Shown here one piece after another: positions 3,975 to 59,753 of a stretch of DNA of 64,000 bases (positions are counted from its first letter, which is position 1; each line of letters begins with the position of its first letter). Source of the DNA: Escherichia phage fDHCT2. Under the pieces are notes generated by a model that was not told the origin of the DNA, ran no database searches, and was given only the letters and a program-made list of their open reading frames with translations. The stretch lies in the sequence record OR427838.1. One strand, given 5' to 3'. The position numbers and the translations under genes were made by a program.

Positions 3975-5658
<1,684 letters not shown>

Positions 5659-30044: not shown

Positions 30045-32255
30045 TTAAGCCGCTTCCACGGCTTTCATGAATTTAACGATTTGAGCTACAGAAGCCTCGG
30101 TAATGGATGTTCCACGACGATACATGTAGTCCGAAACTAAATGGTAATCAGATTCAAACTGTACAGTCATTTTATCATTGTTACTTGAAGCATTATTGGT
30201 TAGCGTATTGAACGTCGTGTTACAGATTTTCTTGATAACGGAAAGCTTATCATCAGTGATATAACCATGGAAATTCATATAACGGAATATATCATAGAAA
30301 TTACTCAGACGAGTATATGCTTCAGACACCGGCTTGTCACTGAAATACTTAGTCATGAAACCAAGCTCAGGGAACTTAGCAATGATTTCAAGGTAATACC
30401 TTGCACGGGTATTACTACCAATGTAGTCATCAATATCTACCGCATCCAATGCTTCGGCATAAGCTTCTAATGTAGCTTCCATCAGGCATTCACATTGGCC
30501 TAACTTTTTAATCTTTTTGGCAATCTGAGGGCGAATGATATGGAATTCGGTAGCACCAATCAAATTAGCCATACGACACATGGTAGTGGTGTTGATGTCA
30601 AAGATACCATAAGCTTCATCCATTCCCATGATATCAGAACGACTACCAAACAATACGTACCCTGTAATTTCTTCTGCTTCGGCCGCAGTTAAGTACAGGG
30701 TTTCATTAGCCCAACGCCCGTCTTTAATGAACCAACGATAAGCACTTGGTGTTTTAGGACGAGGTTCGGATGAACGAACAGTAACCGGAATCCACGGCTT
30801 AACAATTTTATTCAGTTCAGAGACTTTATAAAAATGAATTGTGTCACCTTTAAAAAGTTCTTTAACCTTTTCGAGTTGTTGCATTTGCAGCATTGAATTC
30901 GGGTCGACAAAAATAAGGTCAGTTCCGTATTTAGGAACATTGTTCTCTTTAACAATTTTCTTAGCCGAAGCACTGCTGTCCATTGCCAGAGCCCAAAGTC
31001 CTCGAACTAGCGGTACGCGACCCTTTTCATCATCATAAACAACATGGATTTCTTTCTTATTAATGCCTAATAAACCACTAAGTCCTGCCACCGAAGAAGT
31101 ATTACCACTCGGCTTAATTCGTTTCAAACGTGGGTCTGAAACGATTTCATAAACAACGCCCAAATTAAGAAGGTCGTTTTGAAGTGTATATTTTTGATAC
31201 AGTTTTTCAAAGGTTAATTTTTCTGTAGTAAACAGGCTAGTTCCACCTTTTTTGGTAAGATAGTCACGAGCACTGTAACCAAGGTTAGAAAGGTCACGAT
31301 AAACATGGCGTGGATTATCAGATTCAACCCATTCCTTCGTATCATTTTTAAAGACCACCGCATCCAGTGCTTCGATACGGGTTGCGATATTTTCCATCGT
31401 ACGTTTATCAAGAGACAGCACTTCACGAGACGGAGCAATATCCAGTGAACCCATAGGGAACTTAATATAAACTACATCATGGCGAGTACGCATCCATGTG
31501 CCTTTATTATAAGCAGAATCCAATGGATAGACAATACCACCATAAACTGCATAAAGTCCTGAACGTTCGAAGTTGCCATAATTTGTAGTGGTTACAGGAT
31601 AGTAATCGTCAAATTCAGGGAAATAATCAACTTCAACACCGTCTACATCGCCAAGACCAATGAAAGGCCTCATGATATAACGAACTTCAGTTTCAAACTT
31701 ACGGAAATCCTCTTCGTCAACAGGAACTGTGATTTCGATACCCGTTTTATCACCAGGCTGCATAGGTTCTACGAAAGTAGGTTTAATCTGCGGTCCATCA
31801 CCGTCCATATACGCTACATATCCACGAACTTCGCCATTGTGCCATGAGGTGATATTAAACGTTTCGGTATAACTGAACGGAGATTTTGAACCAAGGCCAA
31901 AACCACCGATGAAATCGTTAGAAGCGGTTTTGGACGACGCGAAATAAGAGTTATACAAACCTGTTTCGTTTTCATCACCACGAATTTGGAAATCACTCAT
32001 GCCTGGCCCGAAGTCACGGCATACAAAACGAGGGTCCAGTTTACCAGGAACCTGTACTTTCCAACGTTCTTTATTACCATTCAGAATATGAGCATCAATC
32101 ATGTTGGTAATTAGTTCACGAACTACAGCACGCACCTTATTACTATAAAGGTCTGATGAAAGAATTTTAAAGACCTTAGGCGAGGCCTGGATAGTAAAGC
32201 CTGTGGACTTAGCGCCGTTACCAATGATTTGTTCTTTTTCGGTTTCAATAATCAT
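30045..32255 (-). CDS. rIIA: rIIA protein
   Basis: 736 aa (T4 rIIA about 725); GHKL-type ATPase-like N-terminal blocks; adjacent to rIIB. Confidence 0.9.
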   Translation of the reverse strand: MIIETEKEQIIGNGAKSTGFTIQASPKVFKILSSDLYSNKVRAVVRELITNMIDAHILNGNKERWKVQVPGKLDPRFVCRDFGPGMSDFQIRGDENETGLYNSYFASSKTASNDFIGGFGLGSKSPFSYTETFNITSWHNGEVRGYVAYMDGDGPQIKPTFVEPMQPGDKTGIEITVPVDEEDFRKFETEVRYIMRPFIGLGDVDGVEVDYFPEFDDYYPVTTTNYGNFERSGLYAVYGGIVYPLDSAYNKGTWMRTRHDVVYIKFPMGSLDIAPSREVLSLDKRTMENIATRIEALDAVVFKNDTKEWVESDNPRHVYRDLSNLGYSARDYLTKKGGTSLFTTEKLTFEKLYQKYTLQNDLLNLGVVYEIVSDPRLKRIKPSGNTSSVAGLSGLLGINKKEIHVVYDDEKGRVPLVRGLWALAMDSSASAKKIVKENNVPKYGTDLIFVDPNSMLQMQQLEKVKELFKGDTIHFYKVSELNKIVKPWIPVTVRSSEPRPKTPSAYRWFIKDGRWANETLYLTAAEAEEITGYVLFGSRSDIMGMDEAYGIFDINTTTMCRMANLIGATEFHIIRPQIAKKIKKLGQCECLMEATLEAYAEALDAVDIDDYIGSNTRARYYLEIIAKFPELGFMTKYFSDKPVSEAYTRLSNFYDIFRYMNFHGYITDDKLSVIKKICNTTFNTLTNNASSNNDKMTVQFESDYHLVSDYMYRRGTSITEASVAQIVKFMKAVEAA

Positions 32256-32262
32256 ATTTTTC

Positions 32263-32466
32263 TCAATTCAGGTTACGTTTAAAAAGGTCTGCTACTTCAA
32301 GGAGCTCGTCCTTAGTAGCGATGTCGTTGAGTATTTTATATCTGATTTCTTTAAAGCGTTCTTTAAAATCCTCAGCTGCATTGATATCAAAAAATCGTTG
32401 GATTAACCGGAATTCTTTATGGACGGCTTTATCGAACAAATCAATATTCACTTTAAAGTTTGTCAT
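32263..32466 (-). CDS. Hypothetical small protein
   Basis: 67-aa ORF upstream of rIIA. Confidence 0.45.
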   Translation of the reverse strand: MTNFKVNIDLFDKAVHKEFRLIQRFFDINAAEDFKERFKEIRYKILNDIATKDELLEVADLFKRNLN

Positions 32467-32803
32467 TTTTAACTACCTCATGTTGAACATATTCTCTGGT
32501 AGAACCGAGTTCAGCCAGAATTCTTCTCATAGAACCCATTGTACTTTTGTGCTCTCTGTGGCGATACAATATCTCCAGAACCTTTTCCTGGACAACAGGA
32601 GAGAGCGCCTGGTTATCTTTAATCTTTAAGGCAATAGATTTTACAGCCTTAAGATATTCTAGCCCCTTACCGCTTGTAATCACTACTCCTTCATCTTTAC
32701 AGTTACGAATAGCGGTTTCCATAAAGGATAAAGCCAGGTTGTCAGTGTTCACTATACTGTTATCTTGCATAATCATATTCTCACCTCTAGATAATCCTAT
32801 CAC
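32453..32803 (-). CDS. Hypothetical protein
   Basis: 116-aa ORF. Confidence 0.45.
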   Translation of the reverse strand: MIGLSRGENMIMQDNSIVNTDNLALSFMETAIRNCKDEGVVITSGKGLEYLKAVKSIALKIKDNQALSPVVQEKVLEILYRHREHKSTMGSMRRILAELGSTREYVQHEVVKNDKL

Positions 32804-32829
32804 AGTTTTGTTATGTTGTAAACCCCGAA

Positions 32830-32847
32830 AAGGGCCTTGCGGCCCTT
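32830..32847 (-). terminator. Stem-loop/terminator downstream of gene 39 region
   Basis: AAGGGCC-GCAA-GGCCCUU hairpin. Confidence 0.45.
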
Positions 32848-32852
32848 AATTA

Positions 32853-33002
32853 TTCAATTTTGTAGACTTGTCCTCGAACTTGATAAAATTCGCCTTCCCA
32901 GGTTTCTACCATAATGGTCACATACTCTGCGAACAAAGGTCTCTTCTCGGCCCAGAGATATCCAAATTCACCGGTGGCTAGCGTTATCCAGTACTTTCTC
33001 AT
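32853..33002 (-). CDS. Putative 49-aa protein (not in ORF track)
   Basis: Perfect AGGAGA SD 5 nt before ATG at 33002; between gene 39 and a hairpin terminator. Confidence 0.3.
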
Positions 33003-33045
33003 AAAGTCTCCTAATTGTATGGCACTCATGTACCATACATATTTA

Positions 33046-34863
33046 TTACGACATCCAGGCCTTACGGAGTTGAGGGTCGTTCCCGAGGAGCATTTCGAAC
33101 TGTTCTTTCCAATCTTCAGGCAATTGAACTACATCAAATTTAGGGTCTTGAATCATTCGACGGTATTCAGCCTTCTCAAGAGAACCTAGTCCTTTGATAT
33201 AACGAATAGAATGTTTTGGTAGAGAGTCCTTAGCTTTGGTATAACTAGGGACATCATAGAACCATTCTTGTTCTTTACCAATCTGAGCAATAATTACAGG
33301 AGTTTTACAGAATCGTACTCGGCCTTGTTCGAATAATTCAGGCCATTGACTAAAGAAGGCTAACAATGACGGATAAATCGAGCCTGTACCATCCACATCG
33401 GCATCAGTCATAATAGCGATATTACGATAGTTAGTTTTATCTGCAGGTTCGCCAATAACCAGTCCAGTGATTGCACAGATATCAAACAATTCTTTGTTCT
33501 TCATGATATCAACTGCAGGCATACCCCAGGTATTCATAACCTTACCACGTAATGGATAACCGCCTTGAAGGTCTTTATTACGTACTTCAATGAAAGGACC
33601 CATTGCTGAATCACCTTCAGTCAAGAACAGAGTTGTATCGGCATCTTTACCATACATATTGGCTTTAATATGCTTATGGACTTTAGCTTTCAAAGCTTTC
33701 TTAGCGGCTTTTGTTTCTGCTGCTTTTTCGGCTGCTAATTTACGTGCTAAAGCAGCTTCGACGATAGGCATAATCAACCCATCGACCTTAAGAATCATCG
33801 ATGCAATTTTCTTAGCATCAATTTGGATATGGCTACGAATCTCGCCAAACGGGGAGGTCAAACGCTCTTTAGTCTGGGAATCAAAACGCATATTACTCAT
33901 ATCACGAATGAACATTACCATCGTAAGGCATTCTTTAACACGAGCCTTAGTTACTTCAATTCCACGATATTTCTTTTTAATACCAGGCAGAAGGTGCTCA
34001 CAAATGTCATCGAATACACATTCAACGTGGTGTCCACCATTCTTGGTATGGATATTATTTACATACGTCAGTTGACGGAACCCATCCGGAGAAGGAGTAA
34101 ATGCCATCGAAACATTATCAGTTTCTTGGATTACAAAGTCATCACCAAATTGCTTAGCATACTTTTTAAAGTTGCCATCTACTTTTTTACCATTAAAAGT
34201 AAATTGGATATCAGGATAAATTACAGCTAGGGTTTTAAGACGATCTAAAGTAATATCCAGATAAATTTGGGTCAAACTATTTTCTTCGAAATGGTTAAAG
34301 TCTGGAGTGAATATAACCGAAGTGCCTTTATCTTTGGATTTCTTAGTAGTCCAACCTTTGTTTTCCATTCCGTTAGAACAGTTAACAGTAATCTCATTCT
34401 CGCCATCAGAGGTGATGCCTGTGAACAAAACAGAGAAGATATTAGTTAAACTACTACCGACACCATTCATGCCGCCTGTCTTACGCTCAGCGTCATCTCC
34501 AAAGTTACCACCAGCCTTTGGAATAGTCCATGCAGCTACAGGACCCGGAATTTGTTCCCTGTTTTGGTCAGTAACCATTGCTTGTGGAATACCACGGCCA
34601 TTATCGGAAACTGAAACCTGATTATTCTTAATTCGGACATCAATTTTGTTTGCGAATTTAAAATTAGTACGAATAGCTTCATCGACAGAGTTATCAATGA
34701 TTTCGTCAATTAATTTAACTAGCCCTGGAACATAGTTCACCTGGGTAAAATTACCAAACAGGAATCGACCGTGAGCTTCATTAGCACTTGAGCCAATATA
34801 CATCCCACTACGTTTTTTGATATGTTCAATGTCGGACAGTACTTTAATTTCATTCTTAATCAT
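33046..34863 (-). CDS. 39: DNA topoisomerase II large subunit (GyrB-like), continuous 605-aa form
   Basis: ATPase N-terminus; TOPRIM block DADVDG; the C-terminal region that T4 encodes as separate gene 60 is fused here. Confidence 0.9.
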   Translation of the reverse strand: MIKNEIKVLSDIEHIKKRSGMYIGSSANEAHGRFLFGNFTQVNYVPGLVKLIDEIIDNSVDEAIRTNFKFANKIDVRIKNNQVSVSDNGRGIPQAMVTDQNREQIPGPVAAWTIPKAGGNFGDDAERKTGGMNGVGSSLTNIFSVLFTGITSDGENEITVNCSNGMENKGWTTKKSKDKGTSVIFTPDFNHFEENSLTQIYLDITLDRLKTLAVIYPDIQFTFNGKKVDGNFKKYAKQFGDDFVIQETDNVSMAFTPSPDGFRQLTYVNNIHTKNGGHHVECVFDDICEHLLPGIKKKYRGIEVTKARVKECLTMVMFIRDMSNMRFDSQTKERLTSPFGEIRSHIQIDAKKIASMILKVDGLIMPIVEAALARKLAAEKAAETKAAKKALKAKVHKHIKANMYGKDADTTLFLTEGDSAMGPFIEVRNKDLQGGYPLRGKVMNTWGMPAVDIMKNKELFDICAITGLVIGEPADKTNYRNIAIMTDADVDGTGSIYPSLLAFFSQWPELFEQGRVRFCKTPVIIAQIGKEQEWFYDVPSYTKAKDSLPKHSIRYIKGLGSLEKAEYRRMIQDPKFDVVQLPEDWKEQFEMLLGNDPQLRKAWMS

Positions 34864-50300: not shown

Positions 50301-50614
50301 CTCTTAGATTTAATTTTATCCAGTTCTTCTTGTATTTGCATTGTAACACATTTTTCTACATGAAGCGCTAGCTCTTCTTTTCGGTCTTCGGAAGGTGTTC
50401 CGAAATCAACCGACACTTTTCCATCTTTCTCAATAACAATATTCATCACATAAACGATGTGAGCAGTGCCATCGGGTAAAGTAAGCATAATTTCCTGCTT
50501 AACCGAACCCATTGACTTACGGATTATATCTAATGATTTCTCATAATAACGAGGGTCACTAGGACCCTCTTCGGTATCTTTAACAAAATTATCTAAATCA
50601 GATAAATCAGTCAT
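50285..50614 (-). CDS. 40: Hypothetical protein at gene 40 position (head vertex assembly chaperone in T4)
   Basis: 109 aa between 41 and uvsX. Confidence 0.5.
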   Translation of the reverse strand: MTDLSDLDNFVKDTEEGPSDPRYYEKSLDIIRKSMGSVKQEIMLTLPDGTAHIVYVMNIVIEKDGKVSVDFGTPSEDRKEELALHVEKCVTMQIQEELDKIKSKRWWKW

Positions 50615-51788
50615 GATCGCTCACAAAATTCATATTTTCTAAATCGTTTTCTATATCAGCGGCGCTTTGGGTATTTCCACCTAATTTAACAGCAACGTTC
50701 TTAGAGACACGAGAGTTAATAAGGTCGTTCACCGCATCGTCAACTTCTTTAATAGAATTAATTGCACCGAGCTTATACTTATTCTCGATTGCTTCACGGA
50801 ACGGAGCATGTTTAAACAGCGGTCCCCAGAACTCGACACAATCGGTAGCTTTAGCACGCCATGATTTTTCTTCTTGAACCATTTCACCTGTGGTTTCGTC
50901 AAGGAATGCACGATTATACCAACCAGCTTTAGGTTTCACAACAAAGCCAATATCAGTAGCCATTTCAAGCAATCCACTGAATGGGTCGATACCACCTTCA
51001 AAGTTCACAGTAATTGGGAACGTTGATTTCTCTTTAACAGTACGAGATTTTTCGGCCTTCAGGGTGAAGTCATAACCAGTGAGCTCGGTGCCATCTTTAA
51101 CCTGACGTTTAGAGATAAAGAATACGGTAGAAGCAGAGTACAGAATACCGGTACCGCCACCCATAATCTCTTTAGGATACATTCCACCAATTTCCATAGC
51201 CGTATGGTTAATTGCTACACAAGGGATATCCTTGATGGTCAGATAAGGTGTTACGATACGGAACAGAGATTTCAGTGACTTAGCACGGGTCATATCACCT
51301 ACAACTTTCTCGTTCAAAGCATCTTCGGTTTCTTTCTTAGAAGCGGTGTTACCGATGGAGTCGATAAAGATAATAACCTTTTCACCACGAGTAATTTCTT
51401 CTAATTGGTTGGTCATGTCAACCTTCAGTTGTTCAACTGACTGGATTGGCGTATGAACCACACGTTCCAGGTCAACACCCATTGAACGGAAATAAGATTC
51501 TGAAGCACCGAACTCAGAGTCATAGAACAAGCAAATTGCGTCTGGATATTTCTTCATATATGCTGCAACCATGGTAAGTCCAAACAATGTTTTAAAGTGT
51601 TTAGATGGAGCAGCAAAGATTGTCAAACCTGATTGTAAGCCTGCATTCAACGCACCACCCAATGCAATATTCAGCATAGGGATACGAGTAGGAACTTCGT
51701 CACGACCATTAAACAATTTGGATTTGGTCAGGTCGGCAGTCATTTTAGAAGTAGAAGCTTTAATCAAACGGGATTTTAAATCAGACAT
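50607..51788 (-). CDS. uvsX: UvsX recombinase (RecA-like)
   Basis: 393 aa (T4 UvsX 391); RecA-fold blocks. Confidence 0.92.
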   Translation of the reverse strand: MSDLKSRLIKASTSKMTADLTKSKLFNGRDEVPTRIPMLNIALGGALNAGLQSGLTIFAAPSKHFKTLFGLTMVAAYMKKYPDAICLFYDSEFGASESYFRSMGVDLERVVHTPIQSVEQLKVDMTNQLEEITRGEKVIIFIDSIGNTASKKETEDALNEKVVGDMTRAKSLKSLFRIVTPYLTIKDIPCVAINHTAMEIGGMYPKEIMGGGTGILYSASTVFFISKRQVKDGTELTGYDFTLKAEKSRTVKEKSTFPITVNFEGGIDPFSGLLEMATDIGFVVKPKAGWYNRAFLDETTGEMVQEEKSWRAKATDCVEFWGPLFKHAPFREAIENKYKLGAINSIKEVDDAVNDLINSRVSKNVAVKLGGNTQSAADIENDLENMNFVSDHD

Positions 51789-51840
51789 TATATTTTTCCA
51801 TAGGCATCATTATATTTTACTCACGTTTTAAGATAGGGTA

Positions 51841-51869
51841 ATTATATCACTTCACATTTACAGCGTTAA
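51841..51869 (-). promoter_or_regulatory. Candidate promoter for uvsX (extended -10 TGATATAAT)
   Basis: TTAACG-N17-TATAAT; downstream box resembles the early-element box (TTACCCTATC). Confidence 0.35.
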
Positions 51870-52759
51870 AGGACCACGTCCTCATAACTTGGCATTTCGT
51901 GCTCAGAATGGATATGGGCGCCGAAATAAATGAATTCAGCTAGACCAGGATGGAATACTAAACCTGGGTTCTCATGATAAATGATATGAGGTCTTGATTT
52001 CAGAATCTGATAATATTCAACCTTACTTGGTTTGAATTTAATAATCTCTACATCAGGACGATAGTCTTCACGCTTAAATGAATCATTCGGGTCGGTGATA
52101 TAAAGACGAGCACCTTCAGCCGCAGCTTGGTCTACAACTCTTTCGAATTGATAACACTTATCCGAAATACGGAATGGGTGGAAAATACCATCAATTTTAA
52201 TAGGCGCTAGACCTTCAGAGTAACGCTCAATTACTGCCGGATTAATTACCTTTTGGTCTACAAAAATCTTATCAGAGGACGCACCTCGTGACACCAGGAC
52301 GTCTTTCTGACATTGGTTCAAGACTGTAGTATAAATCGAACGTTCAACTGAAGACACGTCGGTATCAATAAACTCATCGATGTAATAACGAGGAACTTCA
52401 GGGTCCATTGTAATGTTAAAGTTGAATTGTACAGTCTGAGCACCATCATAACCAGTGATATCGGTTACTAATCCCGAGCAGTCATAGTATTCGATTAACG
52501 AATCAACGACAAACTCATTTTCGGACCAAAAATGTTTACGGGTCTCATAAGCATTTTCTTTATACCAAAGCGGCACGAAATTCAGTTCAGGAAATAATTC
52601 AATACATTCTTTGATATCGCTCGAATTTCTAGGATAAGCCAGATAATCACCTGGGCAAGCACGGTTTAAATGGAGTTGGAAATTACCGTCCTTAAGGACG
52701 GCATATTCACCTGTTTCGTAACTACGCATACTGAAAATAGGAACGATAAACAAACTCAT
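51866..52759 (-). CDS. Uncharacterised protein at the locus where T4 encodes beta-glucosyltransferase
   Basis: 297 aa; no motif I can assign; ATGA overlap with gene 42 homolog. Confidence 0.5.
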   Translation of the reverse strand: MSLFIVPIFSMRSYETGEYAVLKDGNFQLHLNRACPGDYLAYPRNSSDIKECIELFPELNFVPLWYKENAYETRKHFWSENEFVVDSLIEYYDCSGLVTDITGYDGAQTVQFNFNITMDPEVPRYYIDEFIDTDVSSVERSIYTTVLNQCQKDVLVSRGASSDKIFVDQKVINPAVIERYSEGLAPIKIDGIFHPFRISDKCYQFERVVDQAAAEGARLYITDPNDSFKREDYRPDVEIIKFKPSKVEYYQILKSRPHIIYHENPGLVFHPGLAEFIYFGAHIHSEHEMPSYEDVVL

Positions 52760-53454
52760 TTCAGGAATCCTCGAACGTAGTCAAAATCACGTTCAAATAC
52801 GTGTGCACTAACCATAGTATGGGAATACGTACCCAGACCAACACCACACTGTTCAGCAATAAAGGCCATCAGTTTACCCTGCAGATAGAAATCCAGCTGC
52901 ATAACGATAGCACAGTTCTGTGAACGCATATGAGTATGTGCATACAGACGTCCATCACGAATATAATATGTTACCGAATCGGTACATGGATATTCTAGGG
53001 ATTCGTCAGAATCAAGGAGGGCTTGGTCTTGTTCTTGGAGAATTTGGAACACAACTCGTCTCGAGTTAGGCTTTTCTTTAAGCTCTTTAAGTAGGGCTGG
53101 GAGTTGGGCCACAATTCGAGGTCCATAGAAAGTGTTGAAGTTTGCAGGCAATACGTCACTTTTCGGCTTATCAATGAACTTAGCAACATTAGGGTATTCC
53201 TTAAATGCTTCGGCAGCGTCAGTACCACCAGAAATCATAAATTTCCAAAAGGATTCGGCATATTCATAACTGATACGATTGATACGTGGGTCGGTGAATT
53301 TATAGGTGCTGGCATCCAGTACTTCTATAGAAGCAGAACCAATTTCATAACAACGTCCGATACGAGAATCAACTGCAAACTGTGGAGCTTCCAGGATTTC
53401 TTCGTTCATTTGTTTAAATGCATTTTCAAAACTAACAGCGGTAATGTGTTTCAT
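52756..53454 (-). CDS. 42: Thymidylate-synthase-fold pyrimidine hydroxymethylase/methylase, divergent gene 42 homolog
   Basis: 232 aa; blocks align to T4 dCMP hydroxymethylase: PNSRR, PCTDSVTYYIRDGRLY...MRSQN (catalytic Cys), SAHVFERDF. Confidence 0.7.
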   Translation of the reverse strand: MKHITAVSFENAFKQMNEEILEAPQFAVDSRIGRCYEIGSASIEVLDASTYKFTDPRINRISYEYAESFWKFMISGGTDAAEAFKEYPNVAKFIDKPKSDVLPANFNTFYGPRIVAQLPALLKELKEKPNSRRVVFQILQEQDQALLDSDESLEYPCTDSVTYYIRDGRLYAHTHMRSQNCAIVMQLDFYLQGKLMAFIAEQCGVGLGTYSHTMVSAHVFERDFDYVRGFLK

Positions 53455-53987
53455 TTATTCACCTTATTTTCAATATATTCGTTCAGACGTTTTAATTCTA
53501 CCATATCAACATTAAGCAAATTATTATGGCCGTCATGATTTAAGATTTTAAACACGTTTTCAAAACATGTTTCGTATTGCTGGATAGTTAGGTTGAACTC
53601 ATCTTTGGTTAATTTAATAAGGTCATCTTCGAAGTCTTCATCTAATGGATTACGGGTTAAAATAACCTCGATAACGTTAAATTCGGATTTAAACCCTTTC
53701 CAATCTTCCAGTTCTACATAAGGGTCCATTTCACCACGAAGGAATCCTGAGTAAACAATATTACTTGGATAACCACGGTCAAGGATGTAAACGAAATTAG
53801 GGTCTAAAAACTTATACAACGTCTCGACTAAAGCCTTATCATTATCAGTTCCTAATGAAATACACTTGCCATTAATCTTTTTAGGAAAATCAATAAGGCG
53901 GTATTTCTTATTGGATAACAGATTTTTAATTAAAGTGGACTTCCCGGAATTATCTGGGCCGTCTATAACAATGATTTTTGGATTCAT
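53451..53987 (-). CDS. P-loop nucleotide/nucleoside kinase (thymidylate-kinase-like)
   Basis: 178 aa; N-terminal IVIDGPDNSGKSTL Walker A. Confidence 0.55.
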   Translation of the reverse strand: MNPKIIVIDGPDNSGKSTLIKNLLSNKKYRLIDFPKKINGKCISLGTDNDKALVETLYKFLDPNFVYILDRGYPSNIVYSGFLRGEMDPYVELEDWKGFKSEFNVIEVILTRNPLDEDFEDDLIKLTKDEFNLTIQQYETCFENVFKILNHDGHNNLLNVDMVELKRLNEYIENKVNK

Positions 53988-54367
53988 GGATGATAGGCCT
54001 TATAACTATCAAGAGTTCCTTCACGAACCAATTCTTTAAAGTGGTCTGGACGGATTGCTCGGTCATCGATGATAAAAGTATAACTCGGCTTGTGTGTAAG
54101 CAAATTGTGATATTTCAATCCAATTTTTTCAAGGTTCTTAACCAATGCAGGAACTACTTCAACCAAGATTCGACCTGGGCCACATGAAGTCATGCCACGG
54201 GCAGTGAATAATGTAATCTCGTACCCTTCATCATAAAGCTTATTAATCATGGACACCATTTCGGTGTCCGGTTTAAAGTTCTCATAATCACGGTCATGGT
54301 TCCAAATCGTGATTGTGTTATCGATATCAAAACATAAATGTGGTTTATTTTCTACTCGATGCGACAT
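53984..54367 (-). CDS. HAD-superfamily phosphatase
   Basis: HAD motif I FDIDNT near N-terminus; start refined to ATG 54367 (TAATG overlap); alternative start 54382. Confidence 0.55.
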   Translation of the reverse strand: MSHRVENKPHLCFDIDNTITIWNHDRDYENFKPDTEMVSMINKLYDEGYEITLFTARGMTSCGPGRILVEVVPALVKNLEKIGLKYHNLLTHKPSYTFIIDDRAIRPDHFKELVREGTLDSYKAYHP

Positions 54368-56040
54368 TAAATTTTCTTCCATTGTTTGTGGAGTTCAGTA
54401 GAACCTGTAGGTTTATATTTTACACCAGTTTCCTGGTCAAGCAAAACCCACTTATCAGGACAACGAGTAATAATTTGAGCCGTGATAGGGTCACGAACTT
54501 CATCGACAAATTCACCAGTAATAAGCTTACGCTTACGAGGATGCCGCTTCAGCAGCACACTCAGTTGGTACAAACCGTTATAATAAGCACCCAGAGCTTT
54601 CAGAGGGTTATTCTTAAAGTAACCTGCCAGCGCCATCCAAATAACAGCAATCCAGAGCTTGTGCTTAAATGTGCACATAGGAATATCGTCTAAAGGCATA
54701 ACCTTTTCAATATCAACGAATACACGAGTTCCATTACGAGTTAATCCACCCCATAGAGGGTCTGAGTTAAATTTGTCATAGCCATCGATAGAATAAAGCA
54801 CCTTAGCTTCATCATAAATCGCAGGGCCTTTAGAACTATTACCGAAATAACCACGTGGGTCGATGATTTTAATATCACCTTCGTCCGACAGCATAATATT
54901 ACTGTAGTGCGGGTCACCATGAATAAGTTGGTACGGTTCTTTATGTTCAGACAGAATTTCTAATGCATGGCGGAGAAGTTTTTCAGGGTCGCCTACTTTG
55001 AAATCGTTGACATGGGTAATGCCCTGTGGAGCAAAGCCTTCAATCAATCCGGCAATAGAAGCATTACGAATAAGGACCTTGTCCAATACTTCTTTCTTAA
55101 CATCGGAATACCATTGTTCATCGGACGGATTATCAATAGTTCCACCAAATGAACGTAATGCACTAATGACCTTATAAACCATGAGGACTTTAGTTTCTTT
55201 GGACATAAACCGGTAGGCATCTGCCATGGTCCGACCAAAGATACGTTCCATTTTAATGAATTCGCCTGGAGAAAAGTCTACAATGCTAGGAACGAATTCA
55301 GAATCAATAGAATTATACCAATTGATTTCTTTAGATTGAATTTCTTTACCTAAATCGTTAGTTGGTACTTTAATAGCCAGATTCTCAGTGAACTCTAATT
55401 TATTAAATTCACGGTTAATTTCAGAATCTTCATGGGCCTTAGCCAGTTTCAATTTGTCACCGACATCAACCACAAAGTCCAGCTTACGTTCAGTCAAATG
55501 GACCATCGAATCCAGGTTGTCTGCAAGGTCTTCGCCATAATTAGAACGGTCGAAACCTGTCCAATTAGCCACCTGATACAAACCAACCACACCACCGCCA
55601 GTACCAATTTCACGCAAGTACGGTTCTTCAAATGTAAAACGACAGTCGGTCCCATAGGTATAACAGTAGTCGTTATCCCACTCAACTTTATGACCTTCAG
55701 GAATAATATCACACCAGTTAAACAAGACATTATGCCCAATGATATCTTCAGCAATGCAATCGATAGCATGAGCTGAACCATTAGCAACATCAACGTTACG
55801 AATAGTGAATTTAGGCTTATCACCAGTAATCATGTTAATGGATTTGATATAGCCTTTAACGAGGTCGTTAAATTTGCTGTGAATAACCAGAATAATTTCA
55901 TCTGATTGGTTACTATACAAATCATACAAATGCTTTAATACCGTATGTTGTTTGTAGTTAACCAATACCTTCGGGATTTCGTTAGTAATTGGATACAACC
56001 GTGAGCCAAGACCCGCGCCTAAAATAACAACCTTTTTCAT
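54367..56040 (-). CDS. Bifunctional sugar-1-phosphate nucleotidyltransferase (N-terminal) / sugar kinase (C-terminal)
   Basis: Start refined to ATG 56040 (GAGGAA SD); N-terminus ILGAGLGSRLYPITNEIPKVLV; C-terminal HGDPHYSNIML...IKIIDPRG Brenner-type kinase motif. Confidence 0.6.
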   Translation of the reverse strand: MKKVVILGAGLGSRLYPITNEIPKVLVNYKQHTVLKHLYDLYSNQSDEIILVIHSKFNDLVKGYIKSINMITGDKPKFTIRNVDVANGSAHAIDCIAEDIIGHNVLFNWCDIIPEGHKVEWDNDYCYTYGTDCRFTFEEPYLREIGTGGGVVGLYQVANWTGFDRSNYGEDLADNLDSMVHLTERKLDFVVDVGDKLKLAKAHEDSEINREFNKLEFTENLAIKVPTNDLGKEIQSKEINWYNSIDSEFVPSIVDFSPGEFIKMERIFGRTMADAYRFMSKETKVLMVYKVISALRSFGGTIDNPSDEQWYSDVKKEVLDKVLIRNASIAGLIEGFAPQGITHVNDFKVGDPEKLLRHALEILSEHKEPYQLIHGDPHYSNIMLSDEGDIKIIDPRGYFGNSSKGPAIYDEAKVLYSIDGYDKFNSDPLWGGLTRNGTRVFVDIEKVMPLDDIPMCTFKHKLWIAVIWMALAGYFKNNPLKALGAYYNGLYQLSVLLKRHPRKRKLITGEFVDEVRDPITAQIITRCPDKWVLLDQETGVKYKPTGSTELHKQWKKI

Positions 56041-56068
56041 TATCTGTTCCTCAAGTGAATGTAGGTAC

Positions 56069-56100
56069 ATTATACACTATTTTTAATAAATTGGTATTGC
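56069..56100 (-). promoter_or_regulatory. Candidate extended -10 promoter upstream of nucleotidyltransferase-kinase gene
   Basis: TGTATAAT on minus strand; weak -35. Confidence 0.3.
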
Positions 56101-56601
56101 TTAAATCTTATCTTTACCGATTTCAATACACTGTTCTATTGCCGCCGGTACTTTGGTCTTGAGCTTATCGATTTGTTTCTTATAATCACGAGCTTTACCG
56201 AAGCTCTCGGTTTCGAGCATTTCGTAATAACGAGCCTCGTGGATGGAAATCTGTAGATTGATATGGTTTACGCACATCGCATACAGTTTCTGCTTTTTGT
56301 ACAAATCATCTTGACGCTTCATTTCTGCCTGGTGTTTGGCTAGTACCGCTTCACGCTTAGACTCTTGTTCACGTTGGAATTCGATTTCCCTTTGAGCATA
56401 TTTTGCACAGTTATTACCGCATTGATTATTAGCTCGGGTATACACAAGTCCGGAACCAGCACGGAATTTCATTTCGCCATCGAATTGTTTCTGTTCAGCT
56501 GCGATACGAGCTTTACCAACTTCATCAGCCGAAACTGCATCGCCATATTGGACCGCGCAACCTGATAGGAGCATACTCATTGCGATAATTAACTTTTTCA
56601 T
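56101..56601 (-). CDS. Putative lipoprotein
   Basis: 166 aa; signal peptide with lipobox LLSGC; GAGGA SD. Confidence 0.55.
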   Translation of the reverse strand: MKKLIIAMSMLLSGCAVQYGDAVSADEVGKARIAAEQKQFDGEMKFRAGSGLVYTRANNQCGNNCAKYAQREIEFQREQESKREAVLAKHQAEMKRQDDLYKKQKLYAMCVNHINLQISIHEARYYEMLETESFGKARDYKKQIDKLKTKVPAAIEQCIEIGKDKI

Positions 56602-56608
56602 AATATCC

Positions 56609-56746
56609 TCAATTAAAACAGTTATACTTAATTTGTGCTATAAGAATAATCCATCCAATGATGAGTGTCGGAATCATTGGTGGAATTGCCACTGCCCAAT
56701 AAACGGTAAAGGCAGCCATTATAAGAAATAAAATAATTATCTTCAT
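56609..56746 (-). CDS. Putative 45-aa membrane peptide (not in ORF track)
   Basis: ATGA overlap with imm-like gene stop; two hydrophobic segments. Confidence 0.3.
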   Translation of the reverse strand: MKIIILFLIMAAFTVYWAVAIPPMIPTLIIGWIILIAQIKYNCFN

Positions 56747-56979
56747 TGTTTAACGATAATGATTTGTGCGTTTGATTTACGTTCAGCGACGATAGCCCAG
56801 ATTAAAGCCACTACCCAACCAATCATCGTCCACCCTAACAGGAGATTAAGGAAGAAAATTCCTACATTACTACGAGTGCCTCGCAGAAGGGCTAAAATCC
56901 ATGGTAAAAAGTAACCGATGAACATAATAACCAGAGAACCAAATCCTAAAACACCAGCACTAACGATTAAAGCTTCCAT
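56743..56979 (-). CDS. imm: Superinfection immunity protein, Imm-like
   Basis: 78 aa, two TM; LRGTRSN...LLGWTMIGWVVALIWA; T4 imm position upstream of 43. Confidence 0.55.
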   Translation of the reverse strand: MEALIVSAGVLGFGSLVIMFIGYFLPWILALLRGTRSNVGIFFLNLLLGWTMIGWVVALIWAIVAERKSNAQIIIVKQ

Positions 56980-56995
56980 TGTAATTTCCTCATGT

Positions 56996-57039
56996 AGTTG
57001 ATAGGAAGGATACTACCACGTTCCTTGTGGTATGTAAAC
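56996..57039 (-). promoter_or_regulatory. Early-type promoter element upstream of imm-like gene
   Basis: GTTTAC-N18-TAGTAT-CCTTCCTATCAACTACATGAGGAA. Confidence 0.5.
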
Positions 57040-57041
57040 AC

Positions 57042-59753
57042 TTAAAAGTCGAACATATCAAATAATGTTGCTTTTTTCTCGTAGTCGATTTTAGCAGACT
57101 CAGTAAAACCAGTCAGAGGCTTGATAAAGGTCTTTTGGAACAGTACGTTGTAGTCCATCCAACGGAGGACTTGGTCACGAATCTGAATCGGAAGTTCAAT
57201 ACCTGACGGCCACGCCATACAAGCTTCACCAAAAGGGTTGCCTTCTTTAAGCGGCAGCACATATACCTTTTCACCATCAACGATACGAGGCATGGTCAAA
57301 TCACCTGCAGAAGCACGCATGTAAGCTAAGCAACCTTTGATGTGATACGGACATTTAGAACCAGGGAAACCGCCTTCATTATATTTCTCGATGTTGTTAG
57401 CACTGGATACTGCAGCAATGCTTACATAGTTTAGTTCGTTAAATTCCTTATTAAACTGTTTGAAATACTCTTGCAAAGAGGCCTCGCCTTCTTGAAGCAT
57501 ACGACGGATACATTCTTTCAGTGCTTTCTGAACTGCTTTAGGTGTACTTGATTTCTGGGTTTCGAGGCCCATGATTTTCAAGTGTGGTTCGGCATAACGA
57601 GTACCTTCCATGTCCCAAACGTTCAGTGCATAACGTTTCTTGCCTGTCCAGAATCCACCAAGACCTTTAGAACCAAGTGGAGGACCAGCGATAGCTTCTC
57701 GGTCCATGAACATCAAGTGCTGTTTATTGTTCATGTATTCGCACATCTCACGGAAGCCTGCATCAATAGCCGGTTCCATACGTTCACGTGCAAATTTATC
57801 TAAGAAATCAACCCAGTGGTTAGTATCACGGAATTTATCTTCGCCTACTTTATTGATGATTGCGTCAGCCTTAACATAAATGGAGTCAGTATCACCATAG
57901 AGCACGAACTTCTGGTTTTCAGTCTTGCACACACCATTCAGATATTCGTTAACCTTACGTTCAATCCATTGGAGGGCCATTTGACCAAACAATGTGATTG
58001 CAGTCGCGTTCCTGAGGTCATAGTAACGGAACCATACGTTACCAAGTGCACCATAAAGGGAGTTGATAAGCAACTTACGGTTAATCTGAGCAGTCATACC
58101 TGCGACTTCAGTACGTTCGGCTTTGAACAACATTTCTTTTAAAGAAGATGCTGACAATTTTTTAATCTGAGCTTTGATTTCGTCAGAGAAGTCGAAACGA
58201 TAATCGATATCCAGTGGGCTATCAACAGACGGATTAGGATTTTCTAATGCTTCCTTAATTAACTCACCATTACGTTGAGCTGCAAGCATATAACCTTTAT
58301 GTTCTTTACGCTGTAAGAACACCTTCGTGATTTCTGTAGGAATCACGCCATCACGGTCTTTATAGTACATCATGCCGTTAGGAGAGCAACTGTAGGTGTC
58401 GCTAGGACGCGGAGCAGTTCCGGCAATATATTCATGTATCGGTGCGTTAGCGAATGTCCCTGCGATGGTCTCTGGGCTTATATTCACTTGTCGAATGATA
58501 CTCGGGTACAGAGATGTAAGGTCGAAACTCATTACATATTTGTACGCGTTAGGAATAGGTTCCTTAACGAAAGCACCTGGATAAGGTTGAACCGCATGCG
58601 ATTTGGCCTGAGGAATAACTTTACCCTGTTCTTTAAGGCTATTAAAGATAATAGCGTCCCAAGTCTTAATTGGACTGAACACCGACTGAATCTGCATCTT
58701 GGCATAGTAACCCATGTCCAGACTAAGAAGAATGAACTGGCGTTTCATATCAATCTGCACAACACGATATACGTCGATAATGTTATAGGAAATATATCGT
58801 TGGTGGTTCGTCTCACGTAACTTGGAGATAGGACCATCATATTTCAACTTACCTACTTTCAATTCATATTCAGAAACATAATCCAGAGAATAAGAAGGCT
58901 GGTTGGTAAAGCTGAATTTTTTATAAAGGTCGATATAATCCAGAACAGAGATACCGAACAGTGTAATAATTTCACGAACACCGTACATATTCTCGATAAC
59001 TTTAACACGAGTCTTACGATGCGGGCTTAATCGCTTAGCAGTGTTCTCACCAAACAGATTTTTCAGACGGTTATAAACGTATGGCACGTCAAATGATTCA
59101 ACGTTCCATCCAGTCAAAATCACAGGAGTTTTCTGTTGCCAGAAATTCAGATACTCAAGCATCATTTCTTCTTCAGAATTAAACGGAAGATAAACGATTT
59201 TGTCAATGATTTCTTGTGGAACTTCGTCACCACCTTCGTCTTGGAGTTTCTCAGCGATTTTAATCGACCACTCTTCGACCGTACCATAAGGTGAAACTAA
59301 AAGGTCAAATACATAGAATTTATCATCAATCGAGTCGTAGTGAGTAATGGCATCGATAGGATGTTTAGCCTGAGCAGGTTCAGGGAATCCATCAGGGGAT
59401 GTTACCTCGATGTCGAAGTTAGCAATACGAATCTTGGAAGAATCATACTTGATTTCTTTACGATAGGTATCAGACAAATAGGCTAATTTATAGTCGTCCA
59501 TACCAAGGGCTTCGAGACCCATATCGTCCATGCGCTTCATCCACTGAGAAGCATCGCGCATTGAATTGAATTCTTTCTTAACACAGCCCTTACCGTAGAT
59601 GTCAATATATTTTACGGCTTGCTCTGGGTTAGCATGCATAAACATTGTAGGCTTGTATGGAACTTCACGACTACGTTCGTTACCATTTTTATCGATGTAA
59701 CGTTCGAGAATATTATCACCGATTTGTTCGACTGTCAAATAGAATTCTTGCAT
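57042..59753 (-). CDS. 43: DNA polymerase gp43 (family B)
   Basis: Start refined to ATG 59753 (MQEFYLTVEQIG); 903 aa; exo motifs FDIEV, polymerase motif YGDTDS; very similar to remembered RB69 gp43. Confidence 0.95.
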   Translation of the reverse strand: MQEFYLTVEQIGDNILERYIDKNGNERSREVPYKPTMFMHANPEQAVKYIDIYGKGCVKKEFNSMRDASQWMKRMDDMGLEALGMDDYKLAYLSDTYRKEIKYDSSKIRIANFDIEVTSPDGFPEPAQAKHPIDAITHYDSIDDKFYVFDLLVSPYGTVEEWSIKIAEKLQDEGGDEVPQEIIDKIVYLPFNSEEEMMLEYLNFWQQKTPVILTGWNVESFDVPYVYNRLKNLFGENTAKRLSPHRKTRVKVIENMYGVREIITLFGISVLDYIDLYKKFSFTNQPSYSLDYVSEYELKVGKLKYDGPISKLRETNHQRYISYNIIDVYRVVQIDMKRQFILLSLDMGYYAKMQIQSVFSPIKTWDAIIFNSLKEQGKVIPQAKSHAVQPYPGAFVKEPIPNAYKYVMSFDLTSLYPSIIRQVNISPETIAGTFANAPIHEYIAGTAPRPSDTYSCSPNGMMYYKDRDGVIPTEITKVFLQRKEHKGYMLAAQRNGELIKEALENPNPSVDSPLDIDYRFDFSDEIKAQIKKLSASSLKEMLFKAERTEVAGMTAQINRKLLINSLYGALGNVWFRYYDLRNATAITLFGQMALQWIERKVNEYLNGVCKTENQKFVLYGDTDSIYVKADAIINKVGEDKFRDTNHWVDFLDKFARERMEPAIDAGFREMCEYMNNKQHLMFMDREAIAGPPLGSKGLGGFWTGKKRYALNVWDMEGTRYAEPHLKIMGLETQKSSTPKAVQKALKECIRRMLQEGEASLQEYFKQFNKEFNELNYVSIAAVSSANNIEKYNEGGFPGSKCPYHIKGCLAYMRASAGDLTMPRIVDGEKVYVLPLKEGNPFGEACMAWPSGIELPIQIRDQVLRWMDYNVLFQKTFIKPLTGFTESAKIDYEKKATLFDMFDF

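Follow-up and report, generated by a model that had tools for sequence, protein, structure and literature searches.

The 64,000-nt stretch of Escherichia phage fDHCT2, a T4-like coliphage of the genus Dhakavirus, analysed here (record OR427838.1, the whole of which is hereafter called the window) contains, on its minus strand at 51866..52759, an open reading frame (ORF) of 297 codons running from ATG to TAA. The encoded 297-aa protein is the intact ortholog of RB69 gp46:47, DLP3 gp79 and Thanatos TH1_063. We consider it likely to be the single DNA-modification glycosyltransferase (GT) of this Dhakavirus, which would transfer arabinose from UDP-arabinofuranose (UDP-Araf) onto the 5-hydroxyl of 5-hydroxycytosine (5hoC). 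Orthology to RB69 gp46:47, a GT-B fold, the gene context and the 5hoC signature of the neighbouring gene carry this assignment; the choice of donor and acceptor and the stereochemistry are proposed. A study that names Dhakaviruses (NAR 2026; PMC13326640) has already put the gp46:47 family forward as the enzyme that adds the first, base-proximal arabinose in the 5-arabinosyl-hydroxycytosine pathway. The gene and its family are therefore already described, and there is nothing new in the identity itself.

Family membership of the protein is well defined. It matches PHROG 3891, a PHROGs family of unassigned function, over residues 1-296 (E 1.6e-158). In tblastn searches, it shows ~67% identity to the gene adjoining the ThyA homolog in RB69-like Mosigviruses, 50.8% identity to TH1_063 of Shewanella phage Thanatos and 49.5% identity to proteins of Acinetobacter DLP2/DLP3-type phages. 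In the RB69 annotation, the counterpart appears as a pair of ORFs, RB69p047 and RB69p046. RB69 gp47 aligns with residues 1-179 (70% identity) and gp46 with residues 184-297 (64% identity), and the corresponding BFVD models, RB69ORF047c and 046c, superpose on the two halves of the 297-aa protein with template modelling (TM) scores of 0.97 and 0.96. The gp46:47 split is attributed to a sequencing error (PMC13326640). The IME08 record annotates its own ortholog as 'similar to RB69 orf047c'. The family is small: profile-based screening of 1.84 billion representative proteins yielded only 238 relatives.

These results bear on an earlier reading of the locus made from the sequence alone (the original prediction). 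It had called the protein uncharacterised, a label that the orthology to RB69 gp46:47 replaces, and had recommended the comparison with arabinosyltransferases of RB69-like phages that yields the identities given above. Its remark that no motif is recognisable agrees with Pfam, which finds no domain in the protein, including no NTP_transferase, Glycos_transf_1 or Glyco_transf_4. Its suggestion of a novel DNA glycosyltransferase for a modification pathway was right in kind, with a predicted GT-B fold and orthology to an arabinosyltransferase candidate, but the protein is not novel. Matches of the protein to glutathione transferase lambda and C-type lectins in phmmer (E 0.06-0.4), as well as a match to Tdp1 (E 0.76), were dismissed as chance.

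The ORF is clearly a genuine gene under strong purifying selection. At the nucleotide level, 51 phage records are 90-99% identical to it; these are Dhakaviruses, for example IME08, Bp7, WG01 and QL01. At the protein level, at least 80% of the ORF is covered in 350 of 356 phage records (tblastn). Comparison with IME08 reveals 34 synonymous and 4 nonsynonymous differences, that is, a ratio of nonsynonymous to synonymous substitution rates (dN/dS) of 0.027. A GAGG Shine-Dalgarno-like element is located ~10 nt upstream of the start codon. The ATG itself overlaps the TGA stop codon of the ThyA homolog in a 4-nt ATGA (52756..52759, minus strand; read directly as ctgaaATGAgt), which suggests translational coupling of the two genes. 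On the other side, a 77-nt spacer separates the GT stop codon from the start, at 51788, of uvsX (50607..51788, minus strand). In the T4 record, the genes are ordered 43 - imm - 42 - b-gt - segA - uvsX - 40 - 41. In the window, the order is DNA polymerase, then, further on, the ThyA homolog (52756..53454), the GT ORF and uvsX. The two orders match, and the GT ORF therefore occupies the beta-gt slot. Homologs in phage records, the PHROG 3891 match and the dN/dS value bear out the original prediction of a real ORF, and the gene order bears out its placement at the T4 beta-gt locus. Two details have to be reversed. The ORF had been described as directly downstream of uvsX and as overlapping the start of the gene 42 homolog; on the minus strand, it is transcribed downstream of the gene 42 homolog and upstream of uvsX, and the overlap is between its ATG and the stop codon of that homolog.

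The gene 42 homolog itself (52756..53454, minus strand) encodes a 232-aa thymidylate-synthase (ThyA) homolog. From sequence comparison, it is of the 5-hydroxy-dCMP synthase type and not a T4-type dCMP hydroxymethylase. It shows 79% identity to RB69 gp48, for which flavin-dependent synthesis of 5-hydroxy-dCMP has been demonstrated (PMC13326640), and 25% identity to T4 gp42. In agreement with this, it matches PDB entries 9iqu, 9iqc and 9ir2 with an E-value of 3e-126 and the T4 hydroxymethylase 1b49 with an E-value of 6e-6. Its 'MRSQN' sequence places an asparagine at the position of E. coli ThyA D169, where T4 gp42 and the true td of the window (3975..4835) have an aspartate. This D169N change is used as a diagnostic of 5-hydroxy-dCMP (5hodCMP) synthases (PMC13326640). 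With a neighbour of this type, the sugar would therefore go directly onto O5 of 5-hydroxycytosine, and not onto the hydroxymethylcytosine that the original prediction implied.

Because it shares the map position of T4 beta-gt and a predicted GT-B fold class, the protein might be taken for a functional analog of the T4 beta-glucosyltransferase, glucosylating hydroxymethylcytosine. T4 beta-gt indeed belongs to the GT-B fold class. However, no sequence similarity links the two proteins (BLASTP, best E-value 6.1), and T4 beta-gt is absent among the 60 Foldseek matches listed, so that the relation to beta-gt envisaged in the original prediction does not hold. In addition, the sole gp42-like gene is of the 5-hydroxylating and not of the hydroxymethylating type, the gene cassette described below carries arabinose-activation homologs, and RB69-like phages with a gene of the 297-aa family contain arabinosyl-5-hydroxycytosine. 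A glucosyltransferase of the T4 kind is therefore hardly credible here.

An AlphaFold2 model of the 297-aa protein was built from a 41-sequence alignment. It has a mean predicted local distance difference test score (pLDDT) of 95.1 and a predicted TM score (pTM) of 0.90. The model is composed of a seven-strand N-terminal domain (~aa 1-180) and a trimmed five-strand Rossmann-like C-terminal domain (~aa 190-297). The two Rossmann-like beta/alpha/beta domains are separated by an interdomain cleft, as in GT-B proteins. Search for structural similarities using Foldseek, as the original prediction had advised, returned this fold: GT-B proteins are found throughout the 60 matches listed, with UDP-GlcNAc 2-epimerases and MshA on top. 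No nucleotidyltransferase was found among the structural matches.

The core motifs of the family are S10-M11-R12-S13, D24-G25-N26, R74, Q151, P195-F-R197-x-S-D200, T222-D-P-N225, K246, H270 and E275. Positions kept in close and distant members alike are S10/R12, D24-G25-N26, R74, Q151, P195/R197/D200/Y203, N225, K246, H270 and E275. Among them, R197, K246, H270 and E275 are invariant or nearly so in the 41 close and 79 distant members, and are found at the expected loop or helix starts in the model. The EX7E motif of GT4 enzymes is not present; H270-x4-E275 is conserved instead.

Taken with the gene context, these features would fit a minimal two-domain GT-B enzyme that binds UDP-arabinofuranose at its C-terminal domain. 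Judging from their positions after the strands of the C-terminal domain, R197 and K246, standing in for the Arg/Lys pair of GT4 enzymes, would bind the diphosphate and H270...E275 would replace the GT4 EX7E motif. The 5-hydroxyl of 5hoC, presumably already in DNA, would then attack C1 of the sugar to give alpha-arabinosyl-5-hydroxycytosine. We favour a retaining, SNi-like mechanism, since the structures closest to the model are those of retaining GT4-type enzymes and an alpha configuration has been reported for the base-proximal linkage in RB69 and DLP3. The product would shield phage DNA from restriction enzymes and CRISPR.

The GT ORF comes last in a series of five cistrons, with overlaps of 16, 4, 4 and 4 nt in the order of transcription. 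The first cistron (54367..56070, minus strand) encodes a bifunctional protein of 567 aa, in which an N-terminal sugar-1-P nucleotidyltransferase is joined to a C-terminal APH-type kinase (Pfam NTP_transferase 3.3e-8, APH 1.5e-5; PHROG 4098 at E 7.5e-269). This protein is a homolog of RB69 gp52:53, with 41-44% identity to gp52 and gp53, and of HY126 AfhE. In the summary of He et al. given in PMC13326640, AfhE is reported to act both as arabinose-5-P 1-kinase and as UDP-arabinose pyrophosphorylase. By analogy, the 567-aa protein is a putative donor supplier. The second cistron (53984..54382, minus strand) encodes a 132-aa HAD phosphatase (PHROG 1238) with 62% identity to RB69 gp51. It is a homolog of HY126 AfhF, which converts arabinofuranose-1,5-bisphosphate to Araf-1-P according to the same summary (PMC13326640). 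The third cistron (53451..53987, minus strand) encodes a 178-aa Tmk-like P-loop nucleotide kinase (PHROG 761 at E 6.8e-40; 38% identity to RB69 gp45). The ThyA homolog and the GT follow. Homologs of UDP-arabinose synthesis enzymes, AfhE-like and AfhF-like, thus share an overlapping cassette with the GT ORF.

A tblastn search for other genes known from related pathways took the window together with positions 1-150000 of IME08 as its target, so that one Dhakavirus genome was covered. No significant match was found there for RB69 gp3, T4 beta-gt or T4 alpha-gt, nor for RB69 gp49, gp50 (U32) or gp55 (arabinose-5-P isomerase). The T4 beta-gt query finds a true homolog in phage Muldoon (E 1e-124). 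The interval between rIIA and gene 39 (window 30045..34863), home of gp3 in RB69, contains no GT, and nothing is annotated in the a-gt slot of IME08, from gene 47 to a-gt.2. The 297-aa protein is the only recognisable GT of the Dhakavirus genome. Thanatos, with a single GT of the 297-aa family, has mono-arabinosylated DNA, and LC53 and Bas46 have mono- and di-arabinosyl DNA. Because no second GT was found, and by analogy with these phages, we predict that Dhakavirus DNA carries mono-arabinosyl-5-hydroxycytosine. No phage arabinose-5-P isomerase was found either, so that the host presumably supplies this step. Established E. coli metabolism points to KdsD/GutQ as the source of arabinose-5-P.

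Relatives of the GT were also observed outside the T4-like phages closest to Dhakavirus. Natural fusions tie the GT domain to an HAD phosphatase, to an SIS arabinose-5-P isomerase and to the Tmk-like kinase. Metagenomic fusions of the GT with the kinase (P-loop 'EGFDRIGKD', PHROG 761) are represented by P0204, P0222, P0225, P0241, P0211, P0239, P0198 and P0219. Fusions with a KdsC-like HAD phosphatase (DFDG...GDD) are found in P0131, P0145, P0158, P0167, P0172, P0165 and P0215, and one with the SIS isomerase in P0249 (E 1.2e-17 to RB69 gp55). The fusions are Rosetta-stone links of the GT to both the nucleotide and the sugar branches of the pathway.

Four distant loci were inspected. On a 26-kb contig (L009 7496..11220; Logan SRR22071707) from a non-T4-like phage with a DnaE-type polymerase, a P-loop kinase-like gene is followed by the GT member P0117, a close homolog of RB69 gp50 (peptidase U32, E 2e-121) and a GT47-like protein. 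U32 proteins include the RNA 5-hydroxypyrimidine factors RlhA and TrhP. By analogy, the U32 protein of this contig might be an alternative cytosine C5 hydroxylase. In a 383-kb, jumbo-phage-like sequence (L010 6426..9576; GCA_040384225.1), a ThyA homolog (MRSQN), the GT and the Tmk-like kinase form a trio. Two genes upstream of the trio, a Flavodoxin_2 gene (NAD(P)H-dependent FMN reductase-like) would fit the supply of reduced flavin to a flavin-dependent hydroxylase. Rhizobium phage RHph_Y68 (Pootjesviridae; L012 3165..5589) contains a ThyA homolog (MRSQN), a GT member (family hidden Markov model (HMM), E 3.8e-26) and a 211-aa protein whose Tmk-like P-loop reads 'EGLDRTGKD'. The trio of RHph_Y68 probably corresponds to genes 216, 215 and 214 of RL38J1, for which galactosyl, not arabinosyl, has been proposed as the first sugar. 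Finally, CPT_Muldoon_038 of Serratia phage Muldoon (L011 4215..7925) is a distant member of the family (family HMM E 6e-26, BFVD TM 0.76). It is flanked by a T4-type dCMP hydroxymethylase (Asp at D169; E 3.5e-98 to T4 gp42) on one side and by a pair of glucosyltransferase genes, including a beta-gt homolog, on the other. The GT family thus extends beyond 5-hydroxycytosine phages.

Several observations weigh against the assignment of the 297-aa protein as an arabinosyltransferase. Its tie to glycosyltransferases comes from the structural model, and no sequence method makes it. Searches of all PDB sequences with phmmer and with the family HMM gave no relative, Pfam gave one sub-threshold Glyco_transf_4 match (E 2e-4) among 79 distant relatives, and hhalign of the family against that of RB69 gp3 gave a probability of 0.1%. 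The residue roles proposed above follow from secondary-structure position and not from superposition on a liganded structure. The GT-B fold also hosts non-transferases, and the top Foldseek matches are UDP-GlcNAc 2-epimerases. In the accessible literature, we found no demonstration of arabinosyl transfer by the gp46:47 family. Single GTs of DLP3 were inactive on 5hoC-DNA (Lee et al.), and TH1_063 of Thanatos did not transfer xylose to DNA, dCMP, dCTP or cytosine, all of these acceptors being unmodified (PMC12838424).

The protein could be a GT-B remodeller of nucleotide sugars rather than a transferase, that is, a UDP-sugar epimerase, a hydrolase or a converter between pyranose and furanose forms. 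This is highly improbable. The route reported for HY126 gives UDP-Araf straight from Araf-1-P with no epimerase step. Moreover, the association with the base-making enzyme is closer for the GT gene than for the sugar genes: the ThyA homolog directly precedes the GT gene in the window, RB69, Thanatos, the 383-kb sequence, RHph_Y68 and Muldoon. A remodeller would also leave the phage without a transferase.

Another role was raised by Brandt et al., who supplied purified TH1_063 with UTP and xylose-1-P and report the formation of UDP-xylose, detected by liquid chromatography-tandem mass spectrometry (PMC12838424). Since TH1_063 is 51% identical to the protein of the window, the latter might be a UDP-pentose pyrophosphorylase acting on UTP and pentose-1-phosphate, with another protein as the transferase. 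Neither an NTP_transferase-type fold nor the Pfam signature is found, however, and the fold is GT-B. The activity would be redundant with the NTP_transferase domain of the 567-aa protein, encoded three genes upstream, whose homolog AfhE is the reported UDP-arabinose pyrophosphorylase. Dhakavirus and Thanatos would then have no glycosyltransferase at all, and the assay result could be due to an E. coli uridylyltransferase that co-purified. We consider pyrophosphorylase activity unlikely as the biological role of the family, and this reading of the 297-aa protein improbable.

A further alternative keeps the transferase activity but moves it to another level. The first arabinose might be added before replication to a free nucleotide, either 5-hydroxy-dCMP or a phosphorylated form; the Tmk-like kinase would phosphorylate the glycosylated nucleotide and the polymerase would incorporate it. 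If true, DNA would be built from arabinosylated dCTP, the first case of a DNA precursor being glycosylated before replication. The position of the kinase argues for such a scheme. It adjoins the GT gene or is at most one gene away from it in six of six loci (the window, RB69, Thanatos, the 383-kb sequence, RHph_Y68 and the 26-kb contig). A ThyA homolog of the D169N type accompanies the pair in five of them, with none found within 8 kb in the 26-kb contig, and jackhmmer ties the kinase to TH1_064, RB69 gp45 and the neighbours of the GT in the three distant loci (L009, L010 and Y68). GT and kinase are also fused, in either order, in at least eight representative proteins. In RB69, a gp1-type kinase already takes 5hodCMP to the diphosphate, so that no task remains there for the Tmk-like kinase. 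The inactivity of single GTs on 5hoC-DNA points the same way, and Lee et al. leave the level of the first arabinosylation open. Finally, the family is acidic: the isoelectric point (pI) is 4.83 and the net charge -19 for the protein of the window, and the family median pI is 5.24.

Part of this evidence loses weight on comparison. To our knowledge, every characterised sugar modification of T-even phages is post-replicative. T4 alpha-GT acts on DNA at a pI of 6.1, which makes charge weak evidence, and pI was therefore downgraded as a guide to whether DNA or a nucleotide is the acceptor. The fusions were likewise downgraded as evidence of channelling to the kinase: the GT domain is fused to HAD and SIS enzymes too, which indicates a shared pathway rather than substrate channelling. 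The distant Muldoon member has a T4-type hydroxymethylase and two DNA glucosyltransferases as neighbours, and the 10.8-kb locus contains no Tmk-like kinase. Moreover, 5hoC enters DNA when the synthase and a gp1-type kinase are expressed alone. Arabinosylation of the free nucleotide is thus rather unlikely, and transfer of arabinose to 5hoC in DNA by the 297-aa protein remains our preferred reading.

Arabinosyl-hydroxycytosine hypermodification, described in 2025-2026, gives T4-like phages protection against restriction enzymes, against DNA glycosylases and against some CRISPR systems. The pathway therefore bears on the choice of therapeutic phages. The annotation is transferable, as dozens of Dhakavirus records call the GT gene 'hypothetical' or, probably wrongly, 'RNA polymerase binding protein'. 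In KY979109 (SHP1), MW679410 (C6), MH051917/NC_055742 (IME341) and MK295203, one of the two features at the query match bears the latter name. This feature is probably the GT ortholog and, if so, the name is a propagated annotation error. Many GenBank records also label the ThyA homolog thymidylate synthase or dCMP hydroxymethylase. This label should be corrected to 5-hydroxy-dCMP synthase.

A scan of 51500..57200 for promoters and terminators gave counts no higher than in shuffled sequence. One sigma-70-like promoter match (51841..51869, minus strand; TTAACG-17-TATAAT with an upstream TG, 10/12) overlaps the GT stop codon ~50 nt before uvsX and is retained as a lead only. A 166-aa ORF (56101..56601, minus strand) with a lipoprotein-type signal, MKKLIIAMSMLLSGC, corresponds to IME08 orf44. 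Its neighbours are the AfhE-like gene on one side and small imm-like membrane ORFs (56609..56979) on the other.

The Dhakavirus genes differ from those of RB69 in several respects. The Tmk-like kinase gene is located upstream of the ThyA homolog in Dhakavirus and downstream of the GT in RB69. The GT gene is intact here, whereas the RB69 record splits it in two. RB69 gp3, gp50 (U32), gp55 (arabinose-5-P isomerase) and gp49 have no detected counterpart in Dhakavirus. The 297-aa protein also differs from RB69 gp3 and its ortholog, the HY126 glycosyltransferase (PDB 9iqz, 9ir0), with which it has no detectable sequence relationship. RB69 gp3, a 366-aa protein encoded between rIIA and gene 39, is the proposed second arabinosyltransferase, adding onto arabinose and not onto the base; it is probably the 'Aat' deleted in Bas46. 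Beyond phages of this type, the protein may be compared with GT4-type retaining enzymes such as sucrose-phosphate synthase (6kih), BshA (6n1x), PimA (2gej), MshA (3c4q) and WaaG (8b5s). These have 340-500 residues, as opposed to 297 here, and the identity is 8-11%. The phage protein has no Pfam GT match and no EX7E motif, and its C-terminal domain is trimmed to ~105 residues. The acceptors of the GT4-type enzymes are sugars, lipids or small molecules, whereas the one proposed here is a modified nucleobase.

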